The position numbers and the translations under genes were made by a program. From Escherichia phage vB-Eco-KMB39, in sequence record OR539219.1: a stretch of DNA of 64,000 nucleotides; one strand, written 5' to 3'. The notes under the pieces are model-generated. The model saw only the letters and a list, made by a program, of their open reading frames with translations. It did not search any database and was not told where the DNA came from. Every line of letters starts with the position of its first letter. Position 1 is the stretch's first letter. Positions 12,802 to 64,000 of the stretch are shown here, one piece after another.

Positions 12802-13419
12802 ATGTACCACTTTGTATATGAAACAACAAATCTAATAAACGGTAAAAAGTATATAGGAAAACACTCTACTGATGACTTGAATGATGGTTACCTTGGTTCC
12901 GGTAAGGCAATTCAGCAGGCTATAAAGAAATATGGTGAAAACAATTTCTCTAGAACAATACTAAAAGAGTTTAAAACTTCCGAAGAAGCGTACATGTATG
13001 AAGAAGAAATTATAACTCCTGAAATAATAAAAAGCAAAAATTATTATAATATGAAACCTGGTGGAATTGGTGGAATTGTTATGACTACAGAGGTTATAGC
13101 AAAGATGAAAGAATCTTCCGCTAAGAGATTTGAAAACTCACCGGGCACGGTATTAGGTACAACTTGTTACACCAATGGAACTAAAAATATTTTTATTAAA
13201 CCTGGAGAACTTGTTCCAGAAGGATTTGTAAAAGGGATGGTTCATCCTAATAGAAAGTCCAGAAAAGGATGTAAAGTCAAACCGACTACCACAGGAACTT
13301 TTTGGGTCAATAATGGCGCAATAAATAAATTAATACAACCAGACGGTATTATTCCCGACGGATTTATTAAAGGTCGTCTCATGAAAAGAGATTCTAAAGG
13401 CAAATTTAGTAAGGCATAA
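12802..13419 (+). CDS. segE: GIY-YIG homing endonuclease (SegE-like)
   Basis: 205 aa; N-terminal GIY-YIG module YHFVYETTNLINGKKYIGKHS; sits between hoc/inh block and uvsW as segE does in T4. Confidence 0.65.
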   Translation: MYHFVYETTNLINGKKYIGKHSTDDLNDGYLGSGKAIQQAIKKYGENNFSRTILKEFKTSEEAYMYEEEIITPEIIKSKNYYNMKPGGIGGIVMTTEVIAKMKESSAKRFENSPGTVLGTTCYTNGTKNIFIKPGELVPEGFVKGMVHPNRKSRKGCKVKPTTTGTFWVNNGAINKLIQPDGIIPDGFIKGRLMKRDSKGKFSKA

Positions 13420-13421
13420 TT

Positions 13422-14930
13422 ATGGATATTAAAGTACATTTTCACGACTTCAGTCATGTACGCATCGATTGTGAAGAGAGCACGTTCCACGAATTAAGAG
13501 ATTTCTTTTCGTTTGAGGCAGATGGATATAGGTTTAATCCTCGCTTCAGATATGGCAACTGGGATGGACGAATCCGTCTTTTAGATTATAATCGTCTTCT
13601 TCCGTTCGGCTTAGTCGGGCAAATTAAAAAGTTCTGCGATAACTTTGGCTATAAAGCCTGGATTGACCCTCAAATTAATGAAAAAGAAGAATTATCAAGA
13701 AAAGATTTTGATGAATGGCTTTCTAAATTAGAAATCTATTCAGGAAATAAAAGAATTGAACCACACTGGTATCAAAAAGATGCAGTGTTCGAAGGATTAG
13801 TTAATCGTCGCAGAATTCTTAATCTTCCAACATCCGCAGGTAAATCTTTAATTCAAGCTTTGCTTGCACGTTATTATTTGGAAAATTATGAAGGTAAAAT
13901 TCTTATCATTGTTCCAACAACTGCTCTGACAACTCAGATGGCTGATGACTTTGTTGACTATCGTTTATTCAGTCATGCAATGATAAAGAAAATCGGCGGC
14001 GGAGCATCAAAAGATGATAAATATAAAAATGATGCACCAGTCGTCGTTGGTACATGGCAAACTGTAGTTAAACAACCGAAAGAATGGTTCTCACAGTTTG
14101 GAATGATGATGAATGATGAATGTCATCTTGCTACAGGAAAAAGTATTTCATCTATCATATCAGGATTAAATAACTGTATGTTTAAATTTGGTCTATCAGG
14201 TTCATTACGTGATGGCAAAGCCAATATCATGCAGTATGTTGGAATGTTTGGTGAAATATTTAAACCAGTAACGACTTCTAAATTAATGGAAGATGGACAA
14301 GTAACTGAGCTAAAAATTAATAGTATTTTTCTTCGCTATCCCGATGAGTTCACTACTAAATTAAAGGGAAAAACTTACCAAGAAGAAATAAAAATTATTA
14401 CTGGACTCAGTAAAAGAAATAAATGGATTGCTAAATTAGCTATTAAACTTGCACAAAAAGATGAAAACGCTTTTGTCATGTTTAAGCATGTATCACATGG
14501 TAAAGCTATTTTCGATTTAATTAAAAATGAATACGATAAAGTTTATTACGTATCAGGGGAAGTTGATACCGAAACACGCAACGTAATGAAAACCCTAGCT
14601 GAAAACGGTAAAGGAATAATTATAGTAGCTAGTTATGGTGTATTTTCTACTGGTATTTCAGTTAAAAATCTGCATCACGTTGTTTTAGCGCACGGTGTTA
14701 AATCAAAAATCATTGTATTACAAACAATCGGTCGTGTATTACGTAAGCATGGTTCTAAGACAATAGCAACAGTCTGGGATCTTATAGATGACGCGGGCGT
14801 AGTTTCTAAATCAAAAACATCTTCTAAAAAATACTCGCATTTAAACTATCTTTTAAAACATGGACTTGATCGTATTCAGCGTTATGCTGATGAAAAGTTT
14901 AATTATGTGATGAAAGAGGTTAAACTTTGA
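13422..14930 (+). CDS. uvsW: UvsW RNA-DNA / DNA helicase
   Basis: 502 aa; Walker A LPTSAGKS and helicase motifs; MDIKVHFHDFSHVRIDCEE... Confidence 0.9.
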   Translation: MDIKVHFHDFSHVRIDCEESTFHELRDFFSFEADGYRFNPRFRYGNWDGRIRLLDYNRLLPFGLVGQIKKFCDNFGYKAWIDPQINEKEELSRKDFDEWLSKLEIYSGNKRIEPHWYQKDAVFEGLVNRRRILNLPTSAGKSLIQALLARYYLENYEGKILIIVPTTALTTQMADDFVDYRLFSHAMIKKIGGGASKDDKYKNDAPVVVGTWQTVVKQPKEWFSQFGMMMNDECHLATGKSISSIISGLNNCMFKFGLSGSLRDGKANIMQYVGMFGEIFKPVTTSKLMEDGQVTELKINSIFLRYPDEFTTKLKGKTYQEEIKIITGLSKRNKWIAKLAIKLAQKDENAFVMFKHVSHGKAIFDLIKNEYDKVYYVSGEVDTETRNVMKTLAENGKGIIIVASYGVFSTGISVKNLHHVVLAHGVKSKIIVLQTIGRVLRKHGSKTIATVWDLIDDAGVVSKSKTSSKKYSHLNYLLKHGLDRIQRYADEKFNYVMKEVKL

Positions 14931-15619
14931 ATTATAAATTAATATATGATAATTTAATTAATAGAGCCCAGAATCGGGCTCGCCTTAATGGATACACTGA
15001 AACACATCATATAATTCCTAGATGTATGGGTGGTACAAATGATAAGTGTAATTTAGTAGAACTAACGGCTGAAGAACATTTTATAGCCCATAAACTTTTA
15101 GCTAAAATTCATCCAAACCATTACGGTATAATTAAAGCTGTTATATGTATGGGGATGAATTCAAATACTCATGAAAGACACGTCAATAAATCTTACGCAT
15201 GGGAACGTCGTAAAATGGCAGAACTTCAATCCGGCGAAGGTAATCCATTTTACGGAAAACACCATACGGAAGAACATAAACAATATATGTCAAAACTCAT
15301 GAAAAGTCGTCCAATTACATGGGGAAATAAAATTAGTAAAACTAAAAGAATGAACCCAACGAAATGGACTGAAGAAGCTAAAAGATTACATTCAATCAAT
15401 CAATCGGGTAAAAATAACGGCATGTATGGAAGGAAACATTCCGCTAAATCTATTCAGAAAATTAAAGATAACATGCCAGATAATTCAGGAGCTAATAACC
15501 CAGCTGCTAAACCTATAGAAGTAAATGGTGTTAAGTATAAATGTATGAAAGATGCTTCTAAAGCTACTGGATTATCAATGTACAAACTAAGAATACTTAG
15601 AAAAACAGTTAATTTATAA
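14927..15619 (+). CDS. HNH homing endonuclease (Mob-like), TTG-initiated
   Basis: 230 aa; N-terminus near-identical to the mobE product at 42495-43226 (MNY.IY.DLI.RAQ...ETHHI.P.CMGG); starts at TTG 14927 overlapping uvsW TGA; GAGG 7 nt upstream. Confidence 0.75.
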   Translation: MNYKLIYDNLINRAQNRARLNGYTETHHIIPRCMGGTNDKCNLVELTAEEHFIAHKLLAKIHPNHYGIIKAVICMGMNSNTHERHVNKSYAWERRKMAELQSGEGNPFYGKHHTEEHKQYMSKLMKSRPITWGNKISKTKRMNPTKWTEEAKRLHSINQSGKNNGMYGRKHSAKSIQKIKDNMPDNSGANNPAAKPIEVNGVKYKCMKDASKATGLSMYKLRILRKTVNL

Positions 15620-16098: not shown

Positions 16099-16126
16099 GA
16101 TTGTCTCCTCTAAATTATATATCTAT

Positions 16127-16351
16127 TTATATAACTCTCATATGCATATCAATACCCATATCTTTAGAATAAAAATATTCATCAAGATATCCAGCAAATT
16201 TTCCTTTAATATAAAGGACATCTTCACCACACGGGTGGTCGGCCAGGATACGAATATCCTGACGCTTAAGATTATACTTTTTCATTAAGAATTGAATCTC
16301 AGTTTCAAATTCTTCTTCATAATTAAAAGCATCATCAATGCTATATCTCAT
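16127..16351 (-). CDS. hypothetical protein (uvsY.-1-like)
   Basis: 74 aa; start overlaps uvsY stop. Confidence 0.55.
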   Translation of the reverse strand: MRYSIDDAFNYEEEFETEIQFLMKKYNLKRQDIRILADHPCGEDVLYIKGKFAGYLDEYFYSKDMGIDMHMRVI

Positions 16352-16764
16352 TATTTTCCAGCCTCAAATGCTCGCATGTCTTGAATGTGCTTAATAGCAA
16401 ATCCACGTGATTTAATAGCATCAAGAGCTCCGCTACAGAAATCTAATAAAATCCCCCAATACTGTAACGAGGTATCAACCTTTAAAACATCCTTATCAGC
16501 TGATAGAACTGTCTTCATTTCTGATTTCTCGTAACGATCCATACTAAATTCATCACCATCTCCTCGTCCCGAGTAGTAGTCTAATTTAGCTTTAAGAGCA
16601 ACTTTCTTTTGCGCGTCAATTCTAAGCATTTCCTTTTTAATACTTGAATGCTTATTAAGCCATTTACTATATAACATCACATTATTAGCTGCTTCATACT
16701 GTAATTTAGTCGAATCTATAAACACATCTTTCTTCAATTCTTCTTGAAGATCTTCTAATCTCAT
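16351..16764 (-). CDS. uvsY: recombination mediator UvsY
   Basis: 137 aa, MRLEDLQEELKKDVFIDSTKLQYEAANNV...; MotA-box middle promoter upstream. Confidence 0.9.
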   Translation of the reverse strand: MRLEDLQEELKKDVFIDSTKLQYEAANNVMLYSKWLNKHSSIKKEMLRIDAQKKVALKAKLDYYSGRGDGDEFSMDRYEKSEMKTVLSADKDVLKVDTSLQYWGILLDFCSGALDAIKSRGFAIKHIQDMRAFEAGK

Positions 16765-16804
16765 ATTGTTCTCTATTCAATTGTTATTGGATGGACTTAG
16801 ATTC

Positions 16805-16830
16805 ATTATACCACGTTTTAACGTGAAGCA
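16805..16830 (-). promoter_or_regulatory. MotA-box middle promoter upstream of uvsY (candidate ori(uvsY) promoter)
   Basis: - strand TGCTTCA, 13-bp spacer, TATAAT; begins directly after gene 25 stop. Confidence 0.55.
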
Positions 16831-17229
16831 TTATACTCTATTACTAGAAGCCAGTTGCAGTTTTATCTGCTCAATATCATCAGGGTTATCGATGACCGAA
16901 AAACGTATTTCTACTATCAGAGTATAATCATCATAAACGGGTATCACATTAACTGCTAATTTATCAATACGTGGCTCATAGTTTCTTACTGCGCTTTCGA
17001 TATTACGCTCAACTGTGTCAGCAGTAAGAGGAGTCATATTTTCAAAAAGCTGGTCTGATAAATCACATCCAAATTCAGGGTCAAACGGTCTTGAACCTTT
17101 TCTTGTTGTAATAATTCCCAAAAGACTGTTTTTAATTGACCTTAATCCAAGTGATCTGGAAACGTCTTTGTTCCAATCCATTTTCATTTCCGGGTCAATG
17201 TCAGAATAAAGCTTATTAATATTTGACAT
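16831..17229 (-). CDS. 25: baseplate wedge protein gp25
   Basis: 132 aa; coupled to gene 26; synteny. Confidence 0.8.
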   Translation of the reverse strand: MSNINKLYSDIDPEMKMDWNKDVSRSLGLRSIKNSLLGIITTRKGSRPFDPEFGCDLSDQLFENMTPLTADTVERNIESAVRNYEPRIDKLAVNVIPVYDDYTLIVEIRFSVIDNPDDIEQIKLQLASSNRV

Positions 17230-17855
17230 TATAGTAACTCAAAGAACTCTTTGAGGCCTCTTATTACGTGAGCATGGGTTTTTCCACACTCTGGACACTT
17301 AATTGGAACAGCCAAATAAACAGTAGGCTTTAAAAGCATATCTTTTATAGCTACAATATCTGACTCTGTGATGATAGAATATAAATCTTCCAGTTCTTTT
17401 TCATTTAAGTCTTCAACTGGAATGCTTTCCCCGTTAGCATGAATCGTTTCTATACATGATACTATCATGTGGGCTATATTTTTATCATCAAAAATTTTAG
17501 GGTATCGGAATTTAATTTTAATGTCACCCAGTGTATACCAGAGGTCTTCTGGTGCATCTATTTGTGTATGTAATAGATTTATATGGGTTGGTATTTCAGT
17601 TCCACAGGTGCACTTCCAGGAGTTTTCGTGATTAACTTCACCGAGAGAATGTGCCCATAAATGAATCAACAATAGTTCTGATTCTTGGCGGTTTAAATCT
17701 TTTGCATTTGTGCAGTCTTTGATTAGCTTTTTAACAATTACTTCTACGGAACCATTATTTTTGGCAGTAATAAGTTCTAGATATTCTTTAAGCGTGAATG
17801 CGCGACAATTGATTATTTTAGAACCAACTCTCACATCAAATTTGTATTCATACAT
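17229..17855 (-). CDS. 26: baseplate hub protein gp26
   Basis: 208 aa; divergent from gene 51 across a bidirectional late promoter. Confidence 0.75.
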
Positions 17856-17876
17856 ATTTAGCTCCTTTATTTATCA

Positions 17877-17884
17877 TATTTATA
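17877..17884 (-). promoter_or_regulatory. late promoter core TATAAATA (gene 26), overlapping the gene 51 promoter
   Basis: Reverse complement of TATTTATA; palindrome TATTTATAAATA gives two divergent cores. Confidence 0.6.
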
Positions 17885-17888
17885 AATA
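17881..17888 (+). promoter_or_regulatory. late promoter core TATAAATA (gene 51)
   Basis: Exact match 17 bp upstream of gene 51 ATG. Confidence 0.7.
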
Positions 17889-17905
17889 GAATAAAAGGAG
17901 CATCT

Positions 17906-18655
17906 ATGGCAAACATTATTCGTTGTAAATTACCAGATGGTGTTCATCGTTTTAAACCATTTACGGTAGAAGATTATCGAGATTTTTTGTTAGTTCGAAA
18001 CGATATAGAACATCGGTCACCACAAGAACAGAAAGAAATAATTACTGATTTAATTGATGATTATTTTGGAGACTATCCGAAGACTTGGCAACCATTTATA
18101 TTTTTGCAGGTATTTGTAGGGTCAATAGGTAAAACAAAAGTACCGGTCACATTTGTATGTCCAAAATGTAAAAAAGAAAAGACAGTTCCATTTGAAATAT
18201 ATCAAAAAGAATTAAAGGAACCTGTTTTTGATGTAGCTAATGTTAAAATTAAATTAAAGTTTCCTTCTGAGTTTTATGAAAATAAAGCAAAGATGATTAC
18301 TGAAAATATTCATTCTGTTCAAGTAGATGAAATATGGTATGATTGGAAGGAAATTAGTGAATCCAGTCAAATAGAACTTGTTGATGCCATCGAGATAGAA
18401 ACATTAGAAAAAATTCTCGATGCAATGAATCCTATTAATTTAACTCTACATATGTCATGCTGTAATAAGTACATTAAAAAATACACTGATATAGTAGACG
18501 TGTTTAAGCTATTAGTTAACCCAGATGAGATATTTACTTTTTATCAAATTAATCACACACTCGTAAAAAGTAATTATAGCTTAAATTCAATAATGAAAAT
18601 GATTCCTGCCGAGCGCGGATTCGTATTAAAACTGATTGAGAAGGATAAACAATAA
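17906..18655 (+). CDS. 51: baseplate hub assembly protein gp51
   Basis: 249 aa; late promoter TATAAATA at 17881; CxxC pairs. Confidence 0.75.
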
Positions 18656-50279: not shown

Positions 50280-51185
50280 TTAAAGGTCATTCAAAAGGTC
50301 ATCCAGGTCCGTGTCATCAGCACCAGATGAACTGCCAGAGATTGAGCTCATAAAATCATCTTCAGTTTTTGGTTTGAAGTCATCAACATTGAATGCATCC
50401 AAATCATCAGCAACTTTATCAGCTTTCTTAGCAGCAGTTGCAGCGGCACCGCCCATCACAGCAGTTCCCATAACTTGACCGAATTTAGTGCTCAGTTCTT
50501 CAAATGATTTGAATTTATCTTTAGAAGTCATTTCAGAAAGGTCAACCATTTGTTCGAACAGTTCTTTCTGGAAAGATTCATCATCAATGTTTGGAATCGC
50601 AGATTGATTCAGGAATTTAGATTCGTCGTAGTTACTAAAACCAGAAACTTGTTTAACTTTCAGTACAAAGTTAGCACCTTCCCACGGACAAGTTACATCA
50701 ACCGGAGTTTCACCCATTTCAACATCAACTGCAATCATTGCATTGATTTTATCCCAGATTTTCTTACCGAAACGGTATTTAAATACTTTACCTTCATTTT
50801 CTGGAGCAGCTGGGTCTTTTACTACAAGAATGTTAGCCCAGTAAGAAGTTTTACGTTTAACAAGACCGTACTCTTTATTGTCAGTGTTATACAAATCATT
50901 TTTACTGATGTATTGACATACTGGGCAAGAATCGTAATCACCGTGGGTAGATGAACATGTTTCAATATACCATTTACCATTTTTCTTGAAACCGTGATTT
51001 ACAAGAATTGCGAATGGTGCTTGTTCATCATTTTTAGACGGAAGAAAACGAATTACTGCTTGACCGTTACCCGCATTATCGAGTTTCAGTTTCCACTCGC
51101 CTTTATCTTCAGAAGAAAAACCTTTATTGCCATTCAGTTTAGCCATTTGTGCAGCAAGTTCAGCAGTAGATTTACGTTTAAACAT
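50280..51185 (-). CDS. 32: single-stranded DNA-binding protein gp32
   Basis: 301 aa, [50 protein letters not shown]...; acidic C-terminus; classic UUAAA-repeat operator upstream. Confidence 0.95.
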
Positions 51186-51873: not shown

Positions 51874-52527
51874 TCAATACTTGCAAGATTTCACAGTTTC
51901 AATGAAAACATTTTTAGCTTTCTGTGAATCAATATTTAAAATTTTTCTATAAGCCTTTAACTTTATAGAATAATTATTCCAGACTAAATTATCAGTCTGT
52001 TCATCGTGTTTATCAATTATATTTAAAAACGAATCAAGCAAGATAAACGTCTCAAACGAAATTATGTTCGATTGCAGAAGTTTAAAAATATAACTTGACT
52101 GAACCTTTGGATTATATTCAAAGATTTCTTTAAAAGCAGAAACTTCAACTTTTTTACTAAAATAGTAAATATTGCGAATATCTTCTTCAAACTTAAACTT
52201 AATTTGCTTTAAGCGTCCGATATATTCACGATAAAACACAAGTGCATCAGCGTCAGAGATGTCGCCAATCCAAGCATCTTGGTTAGCAACCAAATTACTT
52301 ATAAAGATTAAAGCGAGTTCCTTTAATTTATATTTTTCTGATAACTTCTGGAAAAAATACTTATCCCTTCGCTTTTGATAAGCGGCATCAGACACCCGCA
52401 TGCACCAATTATACTTAATAACATCATACTTTCCATTCATATGTTGTTTTATCATTAAGTATAATTTATAAACTGATTTACCATCAATGTATCTTTCACC
52501 ACCAGCAGGCATGCGGAGTTTAATCAT
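51874..52527 (-). CDS. 59: helicase loader gp59
   Basis: 217 aa; synteny 33-59-32. Confidence 0.75.
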   Translation of the reverse strand: MIKLRMPAGGERYIDGKSVYKLYLMIKQHMNGKYDVIKYNWCMRVSDAAYQKRRDKYFFQKLSEKYKLKELALIFISNLVANQDAWIGDISDADALVFYREYIGRLKQIKFKFEEDIRNIYYFSKKVEVSAFKEIFEYNPKVQSSYIFKLLQSNIISFETFILLDSFLNIIDKHDEQTDNLVWNNYSIKLKAYRKILNIDSQKAKNVFIETVKSCKY

Positions 52528-53117: not shown

Positions 53118-54035
53118 TCAAAATTCATTAATGCTGTTAGTTAATTTAGAAAGACCCGCTTTTACAAAATATGAATAAATTTTGCCACGCGGTGGTAATT
53201 TATATGAATTATAGTAATTCACAATGTTTGAAGCAATATTATCAGGAATATAATCAAAATCAATTAGAACTAAATTTTCTTTATAACGATTATATTCAGA
53301 TTCTGTGAGAAGCACCTTAGCTTGCTCACGGTCATTAGCAATAGCTTCAACGATTGAAGTTTTCATTGAAGGAGTTCGTTCACCTTCAACTCTGGTAAAC
53401 CAAAAGTCAGATCGTACTTTAACTGAAGCAACGTTATCCTTTTTGTCGCCTTTAAGGATTTTAGTCATACAGTCAATTTCAGCAGAACCGCTTTTAATTT
53501 TAACCCATTTCTTATGCATCGGTGACCATTGCTTAACATTTGGGTATTTGTGAAGCTGTGTAAAGTCACCATCCGACGAAATGATTAAAATTTTATGTCC
53601 TTCTAAAGAGAACTTTTTAACAAGAACAGCAATGTGGTCATCTGCTTCATACTTATCAATATCCATAACAATGTATGGCATATAAGCTTTCAATTCATCT
53701 ATAACTTTATGGCTGGATTCAAAATAACCTTCCCAGTCCCAAGTAGATTCTTCTCGTGCTTTTCCGCGGTTTTTCTTGTAATAGTAAGCAAAATCACGAC
53801 GCCAATATCCAGATTTCGCATTATCAATACACAGTACAATTTTAGTGTATCCAAGCGTTTTTGCTTTTTTGACATTAAACTTAATTGAGTTCAATATCAA
53901 ATGACGAACCATTGATAAATTAATTTTTTCTTTATCTGGGAAGTTTACCAAAGCAGTTGAAAGCGCAATTTGACTAAAGTCAATAAAGCAAATTCCTTCT
54001 TTGTAATCTTCATCCAACATCATTTCTAAATCCAT
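53118..54035 (-). CDS. rnh: RNase H (5'-3' exonuclease, FEN family)
   Basis: 305 aa from ATG 54035 (MDLEMMLDEDYKEG...) with GAGG RBS; ORF track frame extends to TTG at 54050. Confidence 0.85.
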   Translation of the reverse strand: MDLEMMLDEDYKEGICFIDFSQIALSTALVNFPDKEKINLSMVRHLILNSIKFNVKKAKTLGYTKIVLCIDNAKSGYWRRDFAYYYKKNRGKAREESTWDWEGYFESSHKVIDELKAYMPYIVMDIDKYEADDHIAVLVKKFSLEGHKILIISSDGDFTQLHKYPNVKQWSPMHKKWVKIKSGSAEIDCMTKILKGDKKDNVASVKVRSDFWFTRVEGERTPSMKTSIVEAIANDREQAKVLLTESEYNRYKENLVLIDFDYIPDNIASNIVNYYNSYKLPPRGKIYSYFVKAGLSKLTNSINEF

Positions 54036-54064
54036 ATGAACCTCGTTCAATTAGTGAGATTTAT

Positions 54065-54139: not shown

Positions 54140-57100
54140 ATGGCCGAGATTAAAAGAAAGTTCAGAGCAGAAGATGGTCTGGACGCAGGTGGTGATAAAA
54201 TAATCAACGTAGCTTTAGCTGATCGTGCCGTAGGAACTGACGGCGTTAACGTTGATTACTTAATTCAAGAAAACACAGTTCAACAATATGATCCAACTCG
54301 TGGATATTTAAAAGATTTTGTAATCATTTATGATAACCGCTTTTGGGCTGCTATAAATGATATTCCAAAACCAGCAGGAGCTTTTAATAGCGTACGATGG
54401 AGAGCGTTACGTACTGATGCAAACTGGACAACTGTTTCATCAGGACCTTATCAATTAAAATCGGGCGAATCAATTTCAGTTGATACTGCAGCTGGTAATG
54501 ACATTACATTTACTTTACCATCTTCTCCAATTGATGGTGATACCATCGTTCTCCAAGATATTGGAGGAAAACCTGGAGTTAATCAAGTTTTAATTACAGC
54601 TCCGGTACAAAGCATTGTAAATTTTAGAGGTCAGCAAGTACGTTCAGTACTAATGACTCATCCAAAATCACAGATAGTTTTAATTTTTAGTAATCGTCTG
54701 TGGCAAATGTATGTTGCTGATTATAGTAGAGAAGCTGTAGTTGTAACTCCTGCGAGTCTCTATCAGGCACAATCAAACGATTTTATCGTACGTAGATTTA
54801 CTTCTGCTTCAGCAATTAATATTAAACTTCCAAGATTTGCCAATCATGGCGATATTATTAATTTCGTTGATTTGGATAAATTAAATCCTCTTTATCACAC
54901 AATTGTTACTACATATGATGAAACAACTTCAGTACAAGAAGTTGGAACTCATTCCATTGAAGGCCGTACATCGATTGACGGTTTCTTGATGTTTGATGAT
55001 AATGAGAAATTGTGGAGATTGTTTGACGGGGATAGTAAAGCACGTTTACGCATTATAACAACTAATTCTAATATTCGTCCAAACGAAGAAGTCATGGTAT
55101 TTGGCGCGAATAATGGAACAACCCAAACAATTGAACTTCAGCTTCCGACTGATATTTCTGTTGGTGATACTGTTAAAATTTCCATGAATTATATGAGAAA
55201 AGGACAAACAGTTAAAATCAAAGCTGCCGGTGAAGATAAAATTGCTTCTTCAGTTCAATTGCTGCAATTCCCAAAACGTTCAGAATATCCACCTGAAGCT
55301 GAATGGGTGACTGTTCAAGAATTAGTTTTTAACGGCGAAACTAATTATGTTCCAGTTTTACAGCTTGCTTATATAGAAGATTCTGATGGAAAATACTGGG
55401 TGGTACAACAAAACGTTCCAACAGTTGAAAGAGTTGATTCTTTAAATGATTCTACTAGAGCAAGATTAGGCGTAATTGCTTTAGCTACACAAGCTCAAGC
55501 AAATGCTGATTTAGAAAATTCTCCGCAAAAAGAATTAGCAATTACACCAGAAACATTAGCTAACCGTACTGCTACAGAAACTCGTAGAGGTATCGCAAGA
55601 ATAGCAACTACTGCCCAAGTGAACCAGGATACTACATTCTCTTTTGCAGATGACCTTATCATTACTCCTAAAAAGCTGAATGAAAGAACTGCTACAGAAA
55701 CTCGTAGAGGTGTCGCAGAAATTGCTACGCAGCAAGAAACTAATGCAGGAACCGATGATACTACAATCATCACTCCTAAAAAGCTTCAAGCTCGCCAAGG
55801 TTCTGAATCATTATCTGGTATTGTAACCTTTGTATCTACTGCAGGTGCTACTCCAGCTTCTAGCCGTGAATTAAATGGTACGAATGTTTATAATAAAAAC
55901 ACTAATAATTTAGTTGTTTCACCTAAAGCTTTGGATCAGTATAAAGCTACTCCAACACAACAAGGTGCGGTAATTTTAGCAGTTGAAAGTGAAGTAATTG
56001 CTGGACAAAGTCAGGAAGGATGGGCAAATGCTGTTGTAACGCCAGAAACGTTACATAAAAAGACATCAACTGATGGAAGAATTGGTTTAATTGAAATTGC
56101 TACGCAAAGTGAAGTTAATACAGGAACTGATTATACTCGTGCAGTCACTCCTAAAACTTTAAATGACCGTAGAGCAACTGAAAGTTTAAGTGGTATAGCT
56201 GAAATTGCTACACAGGTTGAATTCGACGCAGGCGTCGACGATACTCGTATCTCTACACCATTAAAAATTAAAACCAGATTTAATAGTACTGATCGTACTT
56301 CTGTTGTTGCTCTATCTGGATTAGTTGAATCAGGAACTCTCTGGGACCATTATACCCTTGATATTCTTGAAGCAAATGAGACACAGCGTGGTACACTTCG
56401 TGTAGCTACACAGGTCGAAGCTGCTGCAGGAACATTAGATAATGTTTTAATAACTCCTAAAAAGCTTTTAGGTACTAAATCTACTGAAGCACAAGAAGGT
56501 GTTATTAAAGTTGCAACTCAGTCTGAAACTGTGGCTGGAACGTCAGCAAATACTGCTGTATCTCCAAAAAATTTAAAATGGATTGTGCAGAGTGAACCTA
56601 CCTGGGCAGCTACTACTACAGTAAGAGGCTTTGTTAAAACTTCATCTGGTTCAATTACATTTGTCGGTAATGATACGGTAGGTTCAACACAGCCATTAGA
56701 ATCATATGAGAAAAATGGTTATGCAGTATCACCATATGAATTAAACCGTGTATTAGCAAATTATTTGCCATTAAAAGCAAAAGCTGTAGATAGTAATTTA
56801 TTGGATGGTCTAGATTCATCTCAGTTCATTCGTAGGGACATTGCGCAGACAGTTAATGGTTCACTAACCTTAACCCAACAAACGAATCTGAGTGCCCCTC
56901 TTGTATCATCTAGTACTGCTACGTTTGGTGGTTCAGTTTCGGCAAATAGTGTACTAACTATTTCTAATACTGGAACAGAAACTCATCTGATTTTTGAGAA
57001 AGGACCTCAAACTGGAACTAACCAAGCGCAGACGGTGACTATTAGAGTGTGGGGTAATCAATTTAGTGGGGAATCAGACACAACACGTTCTACTGTATTT

Positions 57101-58009
57101 GAAGTTGGTGATGAAACGTCTAATCATTTTTATTCTCAGCGCAATAAAGCCGGAAATATAACATTTAATATCAACGGTACAGTAACACCGATAAATGTTA
57201 ATGCTTCAGGAACATTGAATGCAAATGGCGTAGCAACATTTGGTAATTCAGTCACTGCAACTGGTGAAATTATTTCTCGAAGCGCAAATGCTTTCCGTGC
57301 TATTAGCGGAAATTATGGTTTCATTGTTCGCAATGACGGGTCAGTAACGAATTTTATGCTTACTGCATCGGGTGATCAGACTGGCGGATTTAATGGATTG
57401 CGTCCTTTAGCTATCAATAATGCATCTGGTCAAGTAACGATTGGCGAAAGCTTAATCATTGCCAAAGGTGCTACTATAAATTCAGGCGGTTTGACTGTTA
57501 ACTCGAGAATTCGTTCTCAGGGTACTAAAACATCTGATTTATATACCCGCGCACCAACAACTGATACTGTAGGATTCTGGTCAATTGATATTAACGATTC
57601 AGCCACTTATAATCAGTTCCCGGGTTATTTTAAAATGGTTGAAAAAACTAATGAAGTGACTGGACTTCCATACTTAGAACGTGGTGAAGAGGTTAAATCT
57701 CCTGGTACATTGACTCAGTTTGGTAACACACTTGATTCGCTTTACCAAGATTGGATTACTTATCCAACAACACCAGAAGCGCGTACCACTCGTTGGACAC
57801 GCACATGGCAGAAAACCAAAAACTCTTGGTCAAGTTTTGTTCAGGTATTTGACGGAGGTAACCCTCCTCAACCGTCTGATATTGGTGCTTTACCATCTGA
57901 TAATGCTATAATGGGTAATCTTACTATTCGTGATTTCTTACGAATTGGTAATGTTCGCATTGTTCCTGACCCAGTGAATAAAACGGTTAAATTTGAATGG
58001 GTTGAATAA
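54140..58009 (+). CDS. 34: long tail fibre proximal subunit gp34
   Basis: 1289 aa; repeated ATQxE.N.GT...TPK beta-repeat motifs; late promoter at 54098. Confidence 0.9.
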   Translation: MAEIKRKFRAEDGLDAGGDKIINVALADRAVGTDGVNVDYLIQENTVQQYDPTRGYLKDFVIIYDNRFWAAINDIPKPAGAFNSVRWRALRTDANWTTVSSGPYQLKSGESISVDTAAGNDITFTLPSSPIDGDTIVLQDIGGKPGVNQVLITAPVQSIVNFRGQQVRSVLMTHPKSQIVLIFSNRLWQMYVADYSREAVVVTPASLYQAQSNDFIVRRFTSASAINIKLPRFANHGDIINFVDLDKLNPLYHTIVTTYDETTSVQEVGTHSIEGRTSIDGFLMFDDNEKLWRLFDGDSKARLRIITTNSNIRPNEEVMVFGANNGTTQTIELQLPTDISVGDTVKISMNYMRKGQTVKIKAAGEDKIASSVQLLQFPKRSEYPPEAEWVTVQELVFNGETNYVPVLQLAYIEDSDGKYWVVQQNVPTVERVDSLNDSTRARLGVIALATQAQANADLENSPQKELAITPETLANRTATETRRGIARIATTAQVNQDTTFSFADDLIITPKKLNERTATETRRGVAEIATQQETNAGTDDTTIITPKKLQARQGSESLSGIVTFVSTAGATPASSRELNGTNVYNKNTNNLVVSPKALDQYKATPTQQGAVILAVESEVIAGQSQEGWANAVVTPETLHKKTSTDGRIGLIEIATQSEVNTGTDYTRAVTPKTLNDRRATESLSGIAEIATQVEFDAGVDDTRISTPLKIKTRFNSTDRTSVVALSGLVESGTLWDHYTLDILEANETQRGTLRVATQVEAAAGTLDNVLITPKKLLGTKSTEAQEGVIKVATQSETVAGTSANTAVSPKNLKWIVQSEPTWAATTTVRGFVKTSSGSITFVGNDTVGSTQPLESYEKNGYAVSPYELNRVLANYLPLKAKAVDSNLLDGLDSSQFIRRDIAQTVNGSLTLTQQTNLSAPLVSSSTATFGGSVSANSVLTISNTGTETHLIFEKGPQTGTNQAQTVTIRVWGNQFSGESDTTRSTVFEVGDETSNHFYSQRNKAGNITFNINGTVTPINVNASGTLNANGVATFGNSVTATGEIISRSANAFRAISGNYGFIVRNDGSVTNFMLTASGDQTGGFNGLRPLAINNASGQVTIGESLIIAKGATINSGGLTVNSRIRSQGTKTSDLYTRAPTTDTVGFWSIDINDSATYNQFPGYFKMVEKTNEVTGLPYLERGEEVKSPGTLTQFGNTLDSLYQDWITYPTTPEARTTRWTRTWQKTKNSWSSFVQVFDGGNPPQPSDIGALPSDNAIMGNLTIRDFLRIGNVRIVPDPVNKTVKFEWVE
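54805..54828 (+). promoter_or_regulatory. MotA-box middle-promoter-like element inside gene 34 (candidate ori(34))
   Basis: TGCTTCA, 11-bp spacer, TAAACT on + strand, 665 bp into gene 34. Confidence 0.35.
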
Positions 58010-58017
58010 GAGGTATT

Positions 58018-59133
58018 ATGGAAAAATTTATGGCAGAGTTTGGACAAGGATACGTCCAAACGCCATTTTTATCGGAAAGCAATTCAGTAAGATATAAAAT
58101 AAGTATAGCGGGTTCTTGCCCGCTTTCTACAGCAGGACCATACGTTAAATTTCAGGATAATCCTGTAGGAAATCAAACATTTAGCGCAGGTCTTCATTTA
58201 AGAGTTTTTGATCCTTCTACAGGAGCATTAGTTGATAGTAAGTCATATGCTTTTTCTACTTCAAATGATACTACATCAGCTGCTTTTGTTAGTTTCATGA
58301 ATTCTTTGACGAATAATAGAATTGTTGCTATATTAACTAGCGGAAAGGTTAATTTTCCTCCTGAAGTAGTATCTTGGTTAAGAACCGCCGGAACGTCTGC
58401 TTTTCCATCTGACTCTATATTGTCAAGATTTGATGTATCATATGCTGCTTTTTATACTTCTTCTAAAAGAGCTATTGCATTAGAGCATGTTAAATTAAGT
58501 AATAGAAAAAGCACAGATGATTATCAAACTATTTTAGATGTTGTATTTGACAGTTTAGAAGACGTTGGAGCTACCGGGTTTCCAAGAAGAACATATGAAA
58601 GCGTTGAGCAGTTTATGTCAGCGGTTGGTGGAACTAATAACGAAATTGCACGTCTACCAACTTCATCCGCGATAAGTAAACTTTCTGACTACAATTTAAT
58701 TCCTGGCGATGTTCTTTATCTTAAAGCACAACTATATGCTGATGCCGATTTACTTGCTCTTGGAACTACGAATATATCCATTAGATTTTATAATGAATCG
58801 GATGGATATATTTCTTCAACACATGCTGAGTTTACTGGTCAAGCTGGGTCATGGGAATTAAAGGAAGACTATGTAGTTGTTCCTGAAAATGCGGTAGGAT
58901 TTACGATATATGCACAAAGAACTGCCCAAGCAGGTCAAGGAGGCATGAGAAATTTAAGCTTTTCTGAAGTATCAAGAAATGGCGGCATTTCAAAACCTGC
59001 TGAATTCGGCGTCAATGGTATTCGTGTTAATTATATCTGTGAATCTGCTTCACCTCCGGATATAATGGTACTTCCTACACAAGCATCGTCTAAAACTGGT
59101 AAAGTGTTTGGGCAAGAATTTAGAGAAGTTTAA
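58018..59133 (+). CDS. 35: long tail fibre hinge protein gp35
   Basis: 371 aa; synteny. Confidence 0.8.
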   Translation: MEKFMAEFGQGYVQTPFLSESNSVRYKISIAGSCPLSTAGPYVKFQDNPVGNQTFSAGLHLRVFDPSTGALVDSKSYAFSTSNDTTSAAFVSFMNSLTNNRIVAILTSGKVNFPPEVVSWLRTAGTSAFPSDSILSRFDVSYAAFYTSSKRAIALEHVKLSNRKSTDDYQTILDVVFDSLEDVGATGFPRRTYESVEQFMSAVGGTNNEIARLPTSSAISKLSDYNLIPGDVLYLKAQLYADADLLALGTTNISIRFYNESDGYISSTHAEFTGQAGSWELKEDYVVVPENAVGFTIYAQRTAQAGQGGMRNLSFSEVSRNGGISKPAEFGVNGIRVNYICESASPPDIMVLPTQASSKTGKVFGQEFREV

Positions 59134-59138
59134 ATTGA

Positions 59139-59160
59139 GGGAGCCTTCGGGTTCCCTTTT
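59139..59160 (+). terminator. UUCG hairpin terminator after gene 35
   Basis: GGGAGCC-TTCG-GGTTCCC then TTTTTCTTT. Confidence 0.6.
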
Positions 59161-59164
59161 TCTT

Positions 59165-59172
59165 TATAAATA
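59165..59172 (+). promoter_or_regulatory. late promoter core TATAAATA (gene 36)
   Basis: Exact match 23 bp upstream of gene 36 ATG, after UUCG hairpin. Confidence 0.65.
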
Positions 59173-59195
59173 CTATTAAAATAAAGGGGCATACA

Positions 59196-59852
59196 ATGGC
59201 TGATTTAAAAGTAGGTTCAACAACCGGAGGCTCTGTCATTTGGCATCAAGGAAATTTTCCATTGAATCCAGCCGGTGACGATGTACTCTATAAATCATTT
59301 AAAATATATTCAGAATATAATAAACCACAAGCTGCTGATAACGATTTCGTTTCTAAAGCTAATGGCGGTACTTATTTAAATAAAGTAATTTTTAATAAAG
59401 GAATGACTGTTCCTGGCGCAGGGTCAGGTGATAATGGTATTTTTGCTGGTCCTGGTGATAGTGCCACGTATGATACTACAAATATGGATATTGTTTCATG
59501 GTATGGTATTGGTTTTAAATCATCACAAGGAACAGCAGGTAGAACTGTAGTAATTAACACACGAAATGGAGATATTAGCTCAAAGGGCGTAATTGAAGCA
59601 TCACAAATCCGTGTAACTTCGTTATCACCAGTAAATAATTATGACCTTACGCGGAAAGATTATGTTGATGGAGCAATAAATATTGTTACAGCAAACGCAA
59701 ACTCTAGGGTATTACGCTCTGGAGACACTATGACAGGAAATTTAACTGCGCCAAACCTTTTTTCACAGAATCCTGCATCTCAACCCTCGCATGTTCCACG
59801 ATTTGACCAAATTGTTATTAAGGATTCTGTTCAAGATTTCGGCTATTATTAA
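59196..59852 (+). CDS. 36: long tail fibre proximal part of distal half gp36
   Basis: 218 aa; late promoter at 59165. Confidence 0.8.
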   Translation: MADLKVGSTTGGSVIWHQGNFPLNPAGDDVLYKSFKIYSEYNKPQAADNDFVSKANGGTYLNKVIFNKGMTVPGAGSGDNGIFAGPGDSATYDTTNMDIVSWYGIGFKSSQGTAGRTVVINTRNGDISSKGVIEASQIRVTSLSPVNNYDLTRKDYVDGAINIVTANANSRVLRSGDTMTGNLTAPNLFSQNPASQPSHVPRFDQIVIKDSVQDFGYY

Positions 59853-59860
59853 GAGGACTT

Positions 59861-62800
59861 ATGGCTACTTTAAAACAAATACAATTTAAAAGAAGCAAAA
59901 CTGCAGGAGCACGTCCTGCCGCTTCAGTATTAGCCGAAGGTGAATTGGCTATAAACTTAAAAGACCGTGTACTTTTTACTAAAGATGACCAAGGAAATAT
60001 TATTGATCTGGGTTTTGCTAAAGGCGGTAGTATTGACGGGAATGTTATTCATACAGGCAATTATAACCAAACTGGCGATTATACTTTAAATGGCGTCTTC
60101 ACTCAGACTGGTAATTTTAATTTAACTGGTATTGCTCGAGTAACTCGCGATATTATTGCCGCTGGGCAGATTATGACTGAAGGCGGAGAACTTATTACAA
60201 AAAGTTCAGGTACAGCGCATGTTCGTTTTTTCGATAACAATAGTCGCGAACGCGGAATCATTTATGCCCCGGCTAATGATGGTTTAACTACACAAGTACT
60301 TAATATCAGGGTTCAAGACTACGCCGCTGGTAGCGAAAGCACTTATGCATTTTCAGGCAGTGGACTATTTACTTCACCTGAAGTATCAGCATGGAAATCT
60401 ATTTCGTCTCCACAAATTCTGACCAACAAAGTCATTACTAATAATAAATCTACGGGTGATTATGACATCTATTCGATGGCAGACAATGTTCCATTGTCTG
60501 AAAGCACTACTGCTATTAATCATCTTCGTGTCATGCGTAATGCCGTTGGTTCTGGTATTTTCCATGAAGTTAAAGATAATGATGGAATAACTTGGTATGC
60601 AGGTGATGGACTTGACACCTATCTTTGGTCATTTACTTGGAGCGGCGGAATTAAATCAAGTCACTCAATTTCTATTGGTTTAACACCTGGTAATAAAGAT
60701 TATTCAATATTAGGACCATCTAGTATTGCTTTAGGAGATAATGATACTGGATTTAAATGGCATCAAGATGGATATTATTTTAGCGTTAATAATGGAACAA
60801 AAACGTTTTTATTTAGTCCTAGCGAAACAACTAGCCTAAGAAAATTTGTAGCTGGATATTCTACTAACGGAACCGATTTAACTACTCCTCCAACTGAAAA
60901 TTATGCTCTTGCTACTGTCGTGACATACCACGATAATAACGCGTTTGGAGATGGTCAGACTCTTTTAGGATATTATCAAGGCGGTAACTATCATCACTAT
61001 TTCCGCGGCAAGGGTACTACAAACATTAATACTCACGGCGGTTTGTTAGTTACTCCTGGTAATATTGACGTTATTGGTGGTTCTGTTAATATCGATGGTA
61101 GAAATAATGCTTCTACACTGATGTTTAGAGGTAACACAACTGGTAGCAGTTCAGTTGATAATATGACAATTTCCGTGTGGGGTAATACCTTTACTAATCC
61201 TAGCGAAGGCACCCGTAAAAATGTCATGGAAATTTCTGACGCAACTAGTTGGATGAGCTATATTCAACGAACAACTGCAGGTAAAGTCGAATCGGTTATA
61301 AATGGCACCCAGATTGTTAATGAAAACTTGACAGTAGTAAAAAATGCTACATTTGACGGTACAATCAGCGCAGCCGGTGAAATCGCGACAAATGCTGTAA
61401 ATGGTCTTCGCATTTGGAACGCAGATTATGGAGCTATTTTTAGACGTTCAGAAGGAAGTCTTCATATTATTCCAACTGCTTACGGTGAAGGTAAATATGG
61501 CGATATCGGTCCACTTCGCCCGTTTAGTATGGCTTTAGATACTGGTAAAGTTACTATTCCAGATTTACAATCAAGTTACAATACGTTCGCTGCTAACGGT
61601 TATATTAAATTTGTTGGTCATGGAGCGGGTGCCGGCGGTTATGACATTCAATATGCTCAAGCGGCTCCTATTTTCCAGGAAATTGATGATGATGCTGTAA
61701 GCAAATATTATCCTATTGTTAAACAGAAGTTTTTAAATGGTAAAGCCGTTTGGTCTTTAGGTACTGAAATTAATTCGGGTACATTCGTTATTCATCATCT
61801 GAAAGAAGATGGTTCACAAGGCCATACGTCTCGTTTTAATCAAGACGGTACTGTTAACTTCCCAGATAACGTTTCTGTCGGCGGCGGTGAAGCTACTATT
61901 GCTCGTAATGGTAACATCTGGTCTGATATCTGGAAAACGTTTACTTCAGCAGGCGACGTAACTAATATTCACGATGCTATTGCTACTCGCGTTGCCAAAG
62001 AAGGCGACACGATGACCGGCACTCTTTGGATTAATAAAGATGCTGCTGGAATAGTTCTTAATCCTCCTTTGACCAGTGATTCATCATTTATTCGTTCTGA
62101 TACGGCCGGGGCCAATAATTGGTATATTGGTAAAGGCGGTGCCGACAATGGTCTAGGTTTTTACAGTTACATTACACAAGGCGGTGTATACATAACAAAT
62201 AACGGTGAAATATCGCTTTCTCCTCAAGGACAAGGAACATTTAATTTTAATAGAGACCGCCTTTATATAAATGCTAGTCAATGGGTTGCACATAAATCTG
62301 GCGCTTGGGGCGACCAATGGGGCTTAGAAGCTCCTGTATTTGTGGATTTTGGTAGCGTTGGTAATGATAGTTATTATCCTATTATCAAAGGAAAATCTGG
62401 TATTACTAACGAAGGATACGTATCCGGTGTAGATTTTGGTATGCGCCGCATCACTAATACATGGGCCCAAGGTATTATTCGTGTAGGTAACCAGGAAAAT
62501 GGCTCCGACCCGCAAGCTATCTATGAATTCCACTCTAATGGTACTTTTTATGCTCCGAGCTTACTTAAGAGCAACAGAGTATCGGCTGGTGGTGGAGACC
62601 CTGTATGGACTGGACCATGTATTGTTATCGGCGATAACGACACCGGATTGGTATGGGAAGCAGACGGTATTTTCAACGCATATGCAAACGGTCAAGGTGT
62701 GTTTAGTTTCCGCGCTGGTCTTGCTCAGACATTTGGCAACGTGTCCCTTAACGTTAACGCCGGTATGTACGTTCGTGATAACATTGATGTTAACGACGTT

Positions 62801-63130
62801 TATATTCGTTCTGATATTCGTTGTAAGTCAGAAATTAAGCTTATTAAGAACGCTCAAGAGAAATCTAAACTCTTAGGTGGTTATACTTATCTGCTTAAAA
62901 ACTCTGTCACAGACGAAGTTAAACCGTCTGCAGGTTTAATTGCTCAGGAAGTTCAAGAAGTATTGCCTGAACTTGTTTCTGAAGATAAAGAGACCGGCTT
63001 ACTTCGTTTAAACTATAACGGTATTATCGGTTTAAATACTGCTACTATCAACGAGCATACTGACGAAATCAAGGAATTGAAATCTGAAATTGCTGAATTG
63101 AAAGCATTAATTAAATCATTGATAAAATAA
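59861..63130 (+). CDS. 37: long tail fibre distal subunit gp37 with C-terminal intramolecular-chaperone-like domain
   Basis: 1089 aa; N-terminus MATLKQIQFKRSKTAGARPAAS...; C-terminal about 106 aa with SDIRCK and coiled coil. Confidence 0.9.
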   Translation: MATLKQIQFKRSKTAGARPAASVLAEGELAINLKDRVLFTKDDQGNIIDLGFAKGGSIDGNVIHTGNYNQTGDYTLNGVFTQTGNFNLTGIARVTRDIIAAGQIMTEGGELITKSSGTAHVRFFDNNSRERGIIYAPANDGLTTQVLNIRVQDYAAGSESTYAFSGSGLFTSPEVSAWKSISSPQILTNKVITNNKSTGDYDIYSMADNVPLSESTTAINHLRVMRNAVGSGIFHEVKDNDGITWYAGDGLDTYLWSFTWSGGIKSSHSISIGLTPGNKDYSILGPSSIALGDNDTGFKWHQDGYYFSVNNGTKTFLFSPSETTSLRKFVAGYSTNGTDLTTPPTENYALATVVTYHDNNAFGDGQTLLGYYQGGNYHHYFRGKGTTNINTHGGLLVTPGNIDVIGGSVNIDGRNNASTLMFRGNTTGSSSVDNMTISVWGNTFTNPSEGTRKNVMEISDATSWMSYIQRTTAGKVESVINGTQIVNENLTVVKNATFDGTISAAGEIATNAVNGLRIWNADYGAIFRRSEGSLHIIPTAYGEGKYGDIGPLRPFSMALDTGKVTIPDLQSSYNTFAANGYIKFVGHGAGAGGYDIQYAQAAPIFQEIDDDAVSKYYPIVKQKFLNGKAVWSLGTEINSGTFVIHHLKEDGSQGHTSRFNQDGTVNFPDNVSVGGGEATIARNGNIWSDIWKTFTSAGDVTNIHDAIATRVAKEGDTMTGTLWINKDAAGIVLNPPLTSDSSFIRSDTAGANNWYIGKGGADNGLGFYSYITQGGVYITNNGEISLSPQGQGTFNFNRDRLYINASQWVAHKSGAWGDQWGLEAPVFVDFGSVGNDSYYPIIKGKSGITNEGYVSGVDFGMRRITNTWAQGIIRVGNQENGSDPQAIYEFHSNGTFYAPSLLKSNRVSAGGGDPVWTGPCIVIGDNDTGLVWEADGIFNAYANGQGVFSFRAGLAQTFGNVSLNVNAGMYVRDNIDVNDVYIRSDIRCKSEIKLIKNAQEKSKLLGGYTYLLKNSVTDEVKPSAGLIAQEVQEVLPELVSEDKETGLLRLNYNGIIGLNTATINEHTDEIKELKSEIAELKALIKSLIK

Positions 63131-63133
63131 TAA

Positions 63134-63943
<810 letters not shown>

Positions 63944-63973
63944 TTTGAATAAATATCCTTAAAAGGAGGGTCT

Positions 63974-64000
63974 ATGGCAGCACCTAGAATATCATTTTCG
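63974..64000 (+). CDS. t: holin t, first 9 codons (3' end outside window)
   Basis: AAAAGGAGGG RBS then ATG; MAAPRISFS matches holin T N-terminus as I recall it. Confidence 0.6.

Follow-up and report, generated by a model that had tools for sequence, protein, structure and literature searches.

The middle promoter between gene 25 and uvsY in Escherichia phage vB-Eco-KMB39, a probable core of replication origin oriF

R-loop origins of T4 and comparable systems

The element and the mechanism discussed here are already known, and have belonged to the textbook picture of T4 since the 1980s-1990s. The minimal oriF of T4 spans ~100 bp and combines a middle promoter with an A+T-rich unwinding element (DUE), in which the R-loop forms (PMC3016281). 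The evidence in T4 includes a non-template strand that is sensitive to single-stranded DNA cleavage, plasmid replication upon infection, and bubble arcs from genomic DNA (PMC3016281). Heterologous unwinding elements can take the place of the DUE, and no specific sequence is needed for the oriF R-loop (PMC3016281). A role for T4 RNase H in converting the R-loop RNA to a primer has been proposed, gp59 loads gp41 on the displaced strand, and UvsW unwinds the origin R-loops late in infection, thereby switching off oriF and oriG (PMC3016281). T4 possesses several redundant origins (PMC3016281), and PuvsY and P34i have been named as the two origin-driving promoters, with transcription starts at 115371 (PMC2988021, Table 1) and 153011 (PMC2988021), respectively. 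The MotA box of such promoters follows the consensus (a/t)(a/t)(a/t)TGCTTtA, and is separated from the -10 element by 12 +/- 1 nt (PMC2988021).

A parallel between the T4 R-loop origins and the ColE1-type origin was drawn in PMC3016281 and PMC4412123. In both systems a promoter transcript forms a persistent RNA-DNA hybrid, which is converted by RNase H-type processing to the leading-strand primer. ColE1 needs a folded RNA II of ~550 nt, a specific rG/dC interaction and control by the antisense RNA I. In contrast, the hybrid of the oriF type lies within ~100 nt, control is exerted through MotA/AsiA timing and the UvsW helicase, and no conserved RNA structure was found at the leader. E. coli oriK, which serves constitutive stable DNA replication, also shares R-loop-primed initiation with oriF (PMC3016281), but it is active only without RNase HI and does not consist of defined promoter-plus-DUE modules.

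Promoter elements and their identity with T4 PuvsY

The window, by which we mean the whole stretch of 64,000 nucleotides analysed from record OR539219.1, belongs to a Tequatrovirus that is a close relative of T4. Three phage records match the region 16300-17300 at 100% identity, and about 500 match it at 90-99%. The original prediction placed TGCTTCA, a 13-bp spacer and TATAAT at 16805-16830, directly after the gene 25 stop and in the architecture of a T4 middle promoter, and every coordinate proved exact. The minus strand reads ...AGA GTA TAA, TGCTTCA, CGTTAAAACGTGG, TATAAT, GAATCTA... at this position; the coordinates of the elements, the flanking genes and the candidate trans-acting genes are collected in Table 1.

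Table 1. Coordinates of the promoter elements, the transcribed region and the relevant genes in the window
Feature	Position	Strand	Basis or remark
MotA box TAATGCTTCA	16824..16833	-	sequence; core TGCTTCA 16830-16824
Spacer CGTTAAAACGTGG, 13 nt	16811..16823 (16823-16811)	-	sequence
-10 element TATAAT	16805..16810	-	sequence; TATA_box in T4 record M77695
Predicted transcription start, A, 7 nt after TATAAT	16798	-	equivalent of mapped T4 PuvsY start 115371
Leader unit TCCAATAACA, single copy, +8 to +17	16782..16791	-	alignment to T4
A+T-rich transcribed tract, putative equivalent of the T4 DUE	16700..16798	-	composition, stability, T4 identity
uvsY, 137 aa	16351..16764	-	Pfam UvsY, E = 4.5e-52; 98.5% identical to T4 UvsY
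Gene 25, baseplate wedge, 132 aa	16831..17229	-	Pfam GPW_gp25; stop abuts MotA box
uvsW helicase	13422..14930	+	Pfam UvsW_N, E = 8e-44, and helicase domains
rnh (T4 RNase H)	53118..54050	-	Pfam RNaseH_C, E = 7e-70
Gene 59, helicase loader	51874..52527	-	Pfam T4_Gp59_N and T4_Gp59_C
gp32	50280-51185		encoded in window

The gene 25 stop TAA (16833-16831, in minus-strand reading) provides the first three bases of the MotA box. All three are A or T, so that the full 10-nt consensus is matched, with C at the t/c position, and the 13-nt spacing to TATAAT falls inside the 12 +/- 1 range (PMC2988021). The spacer ends at its 3' side in TGG, which places an extended -10 motif (TGn) in front of a perfect TATAAT. 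No -35/-10 pair was reported at 16805-16830 by a sigma-70 scan, which missed the site because the promoter lacks a -35 hexamer. The locus thus has the features of a MotA/AsiA middle promoter, namely a box near -30, the proper spacing, an excellent -10 element and no -35 hexamer. The ATG of uvsY (16764) lies 41 nt downstream of TATAAT, within an arrangement in which 66 bp separate gene 25 from uvsY.

Alignment to the T4 ori(uvsY) region, which had been suggested as a check, gave a clear match: between -47 and +183 relative to the T4 PuvsY start, the window differs from T4 in a single 10-nt unit, and the promoter is base for base the T4 uvsY middle promoter. The published T4 start, 115371, is an A located 7 nt after TATAAT, in agreement with the start predicted about 7 bp past the -10 element, and it maps to 16798 in the alignment. 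In the early T4 record M77695, these elements carry the labels "mot box" and "TATA_box". The T4 genome record carries the rep_origin feature "oriF (oriuvsY)", with minus-strand direction, at 115321, six bases into uvsY, and the text of this feature describes the primer RNA as the same as the uvsY transcript. The order of gene 25 and uvsY is the same in T4 and in the window. The site is, about as certainly as sequence allows, the orthologue of T4 PuvsY. The further proposal that this promoter doubles as ori(uvsY) finds support in the homology with T4, whose rep_origin oriF stands at the matching place. We estimate a probability of about 0.85 that the site is both the PuvsY orthologue and the core of replication origin oriF/ori(uvsY), where origin activity in vB-Eco-KMB39 itself would follow from that of T4 by homology.

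Comparison with T4 oriF/PuvsY reveals the same flanking genes, identical MotA box, spacer, -10 element and start region, and a downstream tract of the same A+T content and stability. The exception is the unit TCCAATAACA, which occurs once in the window and twice in T4, giving leaders of 34 nt and 44 nt, respectively.

The promoter is widely conserved. A 61-nt promoter stretch was found over its full length, with at least 90% identity, in 499 phage records. The comparison across genera covered 20 loci from five genera, in which the elements always stand directly after gene 25. All Tequatrovirus loci carry TGCTTCA, a 13-nt spacer and TATAAT, and Mosigvirus (RB69, JS09 type) carries TGCTTCA and TATAAT with a 12-nt spacer of unrelated sequence. 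The box is represented by CGCTTAC in Moonvirus (14 nt from GCTT to TATAAT), by CGCTTTC in Karamvirus (15 nt from GCTT) and by TGCTAAC in Jiaodavirus (15 nt from the GCTA core), while TATAAT is invariant in all 20 loci. Retention of both elements while the DNA between them changes is the pattern that would be expected of a real promoter. The bases after the -10 element and the first ~12 transcribed nucleotides (16787-16804, minus strand) are also conserved in the five Tevenvirinae genera, as TATAATG....TAAGTCCATCC; the transcribed part is AAGTCCATCC in the window and AGGTCCTTCC-like in the other genera. Outside these bases the leader diverges among the five genera, as does the promoter spacer. 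No pairs of a conserved leader RNA structure were predicted across these genera, and the leader found no match in Rfam at E <= 1.

The pattern TGCTTYA-N11-13-TATAAT is expected 0.11 times per window, based on 100 dinucleotide-preserving shuffles, and was found twice; none of the 100 shuffles contained two or more matches. The heptamer TGCTTYA alone is common, with 65 copies on the two strands where shuffles give an expectation of 31 +/- 6, and therefore only the composite pattern carries weight. Most of the TGCTTYA copies in the window have no -10 partner. We also note a second mot box, AATGCTT (16624-16630, minus strand), inside uvsY, which is annotated likewise in M77695 and is not followed by a -10 element at the correct distance.

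The two strict composite matches in the 64 kb correspond to the two origin-driving middle promoters of T4, PuvsY and P34i. The second match is situated at 56349-56374 (minus strand), antisense within gene 34 (54140-58009), with a predicted start at 56342. Its surroundings are 99% identical to T4 ori(34)/oriG over 221 nt, and its location is that of the T4 rep_origin oriG. It is the homologue of T4 P34i/oriG (ori34), the other plasmid-tested origin of T4. The window has G instead of the T of T4 at -15, by which the extended -10 "TG" of T4 P34i is lost (AAGGGTATAAT in place of AAGTGTATAAT). T4 oriG/P34i resembles oriF in TGCTTCA, the 13-nt spacer, TATAAT, the start 7 nt downstream and its action as an R-loop origin in T4. 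It differs from oriF in being antisense inside gene 34, where it serves no downstream gene, and in sharing no sequence similarity beyond the promoter elements; in the window, the 100 bp downstream of the oriG homologue are, in contrast to those of oriF, not unusually unstable.

The transcribed tract, its leader unit and the proposed initiation pathway

The tract proposed as the R-loop site runs through the 34-nt leader and ~65 nt into uvsY, its extent being taken from the ~100-bp minimal origin of PMC3016281. A+T content is 70-72% in the tract and 68-76% from -50 to +175, compared with 64% for the window. Stability was profiled with SantaLucia nearest-neighbour parameters in windows of 50, 60 and 100 bp. 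The segment +1..+100, with 71% A+T, belongs to the least stable ~5% of 100-bp windows, and the 100-bp windows within 16620-16809 are among the least stable 3.5-5%. Purines make up 62-63% of the RNA-like strand, a share that ranks in the top ~1.5-2% of windows on both strands. The tract is not a local stability minimum, however, as 16114-16213, 17808-17907 and other nearby windows are less stable. The helical stability profile, offered originally as a way to check the origin, is consequently non-diagnostic: the tract is moderately unstable with less stable windows in its vicinity. The RNA:DNA hybrid minus duplex stability is unremarkable at the 15th-33rd percentile (Sugimoto parameters), the nascent RNA shows no deficit of structure relative to shuffled controls (z ~0 for both origin homologues), and GC/AT skew only reflects the coding strand of the uvsY-25-26 block, which is read leftward. 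Sequence properties alone would not single out the site as an origin; the tract may be regarded as a DUE through its identity with T4 and not through a distinctive profile.

As a separate observation, 16114-16213, located at the uvsY.-1/uvsY.-2 junction, ranks third from the bottom in stability among the 100-bp stretches of the 64 kb. It contains the sequence of this region that best matches a sigma-70 promoter, ATGAGA-16-TATAAT (10/12), at 16141-16114 (minus strand).

The 10-nt leader unit is the one difference from T4 within the aligned region. T4 carries two tandem copies (TCCAATAACA/ACCAATAACA), and the window one. The single-copy form is present in 483 of the 499 Tequatrovirus records. 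The other 16 comprise 14 T4 records together with RB55 and RB59, and 14 of these 16 have two copies. The two exceptions, T4_583L and T4_7t1, are engineered genome-reduced T4 clones with 4 and 5 copies, respectively; this expansion is putative, since it may be an assembly artefact, and PMC9825161, the paper describing the genome-reduced T4 clones, makes no mention of it. The duplex stability of +1..+60 is -68.9 kcal/mol in the window versus -68.8 kcal/mol in T4, with 70% A+T in both. Heterologous unwinding elements work and no specific sequence is required (PMC3016281), and therefore it is unlikely that the difference between one and two copies abolishes origin function.

The pathway in vB-Eco-KMB39 can be outlined by homology with T4, for which its steps have been demonstrated. 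Early in infection, AsiA would remodel region 4 of the host sigma-70, and MotA would bind the box TAATGCTTCA near -30 and contact sigma, with sigma region 2 engaging TGG-TATAAT. Transcription would run from ~16798 leftward into uvsY, and a part of the transcript would stay hybridised to the template at ~16798-16700 as a persistent R-loop. Recourse to such an R-loop in the original prediction agrees with the promoter, DUE and R-loop described for T4 in PMC3016281. The phage RNase H would probably trim the RNA to the leading-strand primer, and gp59 would load the gp41/gp61 primosome on the displaced strand. The origin would be turned off late in infection, both by the UvsW helicase and by the change to late transcription.

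The window carries the genes for all four trans-acting partners, UvsW, RNase H, gp59 and gp32, and Pfam confirmed the neighbours UvsY, gp25, gp26, gp51, UvsW and UvsW.1. The right end of the window falls in gene 38; the asiA and motA genes of T4 are found 1-3 kb beyond this point. MK327937.1, which is 100% identical at the uvsY locus, encodes both motA and asiA; from relatives such as this one, both genes are presumably present in the vB-Eco-KMB39 genome.

Several features of the surrounding genome are recorded here in their own right. At the right end of the window (59000-64000; gene 37 and a glycine-rich gene 38 adhesin) the best phage record reaches 92%, in contrast to the 100% matches of the uvsY region. 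The source phage is a mosaic that has no counterpart as such in the phage collection, where no record is collinear with its tail-fibre end. A 230-aa open reading frame with an HNH-like N-terminus and NUMOD3 (14927-15619, plus strand) lies between uvsW and uvsW.1 and overlaps the uvsW stop. It is absent from T4 and looks like a sporadic mobile element, full-length copies annotated as homing endonucleases being carried by 48 of 492 Tequatrovirus records. A segE-like GIY-YIG open reading frame (12802-13419) is situated upstream of uvsW, as in T4.

Alternative readings and significance

The most serious question is whether the site is only the uvsY middle promoter, with no origin firing in vB-Eco-KMB39 and with replication starting from other origins or by recombination. 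A shorter leader, for instance, or a factor elsewhere in the genome, would then block the persistent R-loop. Such a situation is conceivable as origin function was shown with T4 DNA only, which has two 10-nt copies where the window has one, as the tract displays no outstanding thermodynamic signature, and as the origins of T4 are several and redundant. It is nevertheless unlikely, given that the oriF R-loop is independent of a specific DUE sequence, with heterologous elements being functional (PMC3016281), that the +1..+60 stability equals that of T4, and that everything else between -47 and +183 is identical to T4. An accidental pairing of TGCTTCA and TATAAT in A+T-rich DNA, devoid of promoter function, might be suspected from the frequency of TGCTTYA and from the abundance of TATAAT-like hexamers in DNA of 36% G+C. 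The composite is expected just 0.11 times, though, and it stands in the 66 bp between two genes, correctly oriented and ahead of a middle gene; its conservation, moreover, extends to 499 records and across genera, with a spacer that diverges freely. Conservation and identity with the experimentally mapped T4 promoter effectively refute an accidental origin of the pair, the probability of which is close to nil.

The spacer also contains a palindrome of 14 nt, CACGTTAAAACGTG (16825-16812, minus strand), which begins 5 nt past the gene 25 stop and takes in the end of the MotA box, with most of its length in the spacer. It could be the functional element itself, either by forming a hairpin at which gene 26-25 transcripts are terminated or processed, or by binding a dimeric protein, in which case the promoter-like hexamers would be incidental. 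The closeness to the stop, the z of -2.1 of its single-stranded DNA hairpin, and the arms, which are kept in all Tequatrovirus loci examined (a common variant, CACGTATAAACGTG, alters the loop only), speak for such a function. On the other side, no more than 5-6 pairs form the stem (-3.9 kcal/mol), and Mosigvirus and the other genera retain the box and the -10 element without having the palindrome; we therefore regard a primary role of the palindrome as very improbable. As a terminator it was rejected: it is weak, has no T-run, gave no match in the terminator scan and is not conserved outside the genus.

The reading as PuvsY and the core of oriF is mainly of use for annotation: a rep_origin/promoter feature and its oriG partner can be placed in a gap that public relatives mostly leave unannotated. 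What is mildly new is that the T4 reference has a minority two-copy allele, that the repeat is expanded in two engineered clones, and that the ~12 first transcribed bases are conserved. The minority status of the T4 allele matters to users of T4 oriF plasmids as a model. It is a long shot that the copy number of the leader unit and the conserved first ~12 nt are not neutral and tune the origin or uvsY expression. If this were true, with R-loop nucleation or the primer end being set there, oriF would have sequence-specific determinants beyond the view that any unwinding element suffices, and the T4 laboratory strain would carry an atypical allele of its own model origin. The scientific gain is small, and the added value is comparative, in that the position of the promoter has been kept through several genera of the Tevenvirinae.
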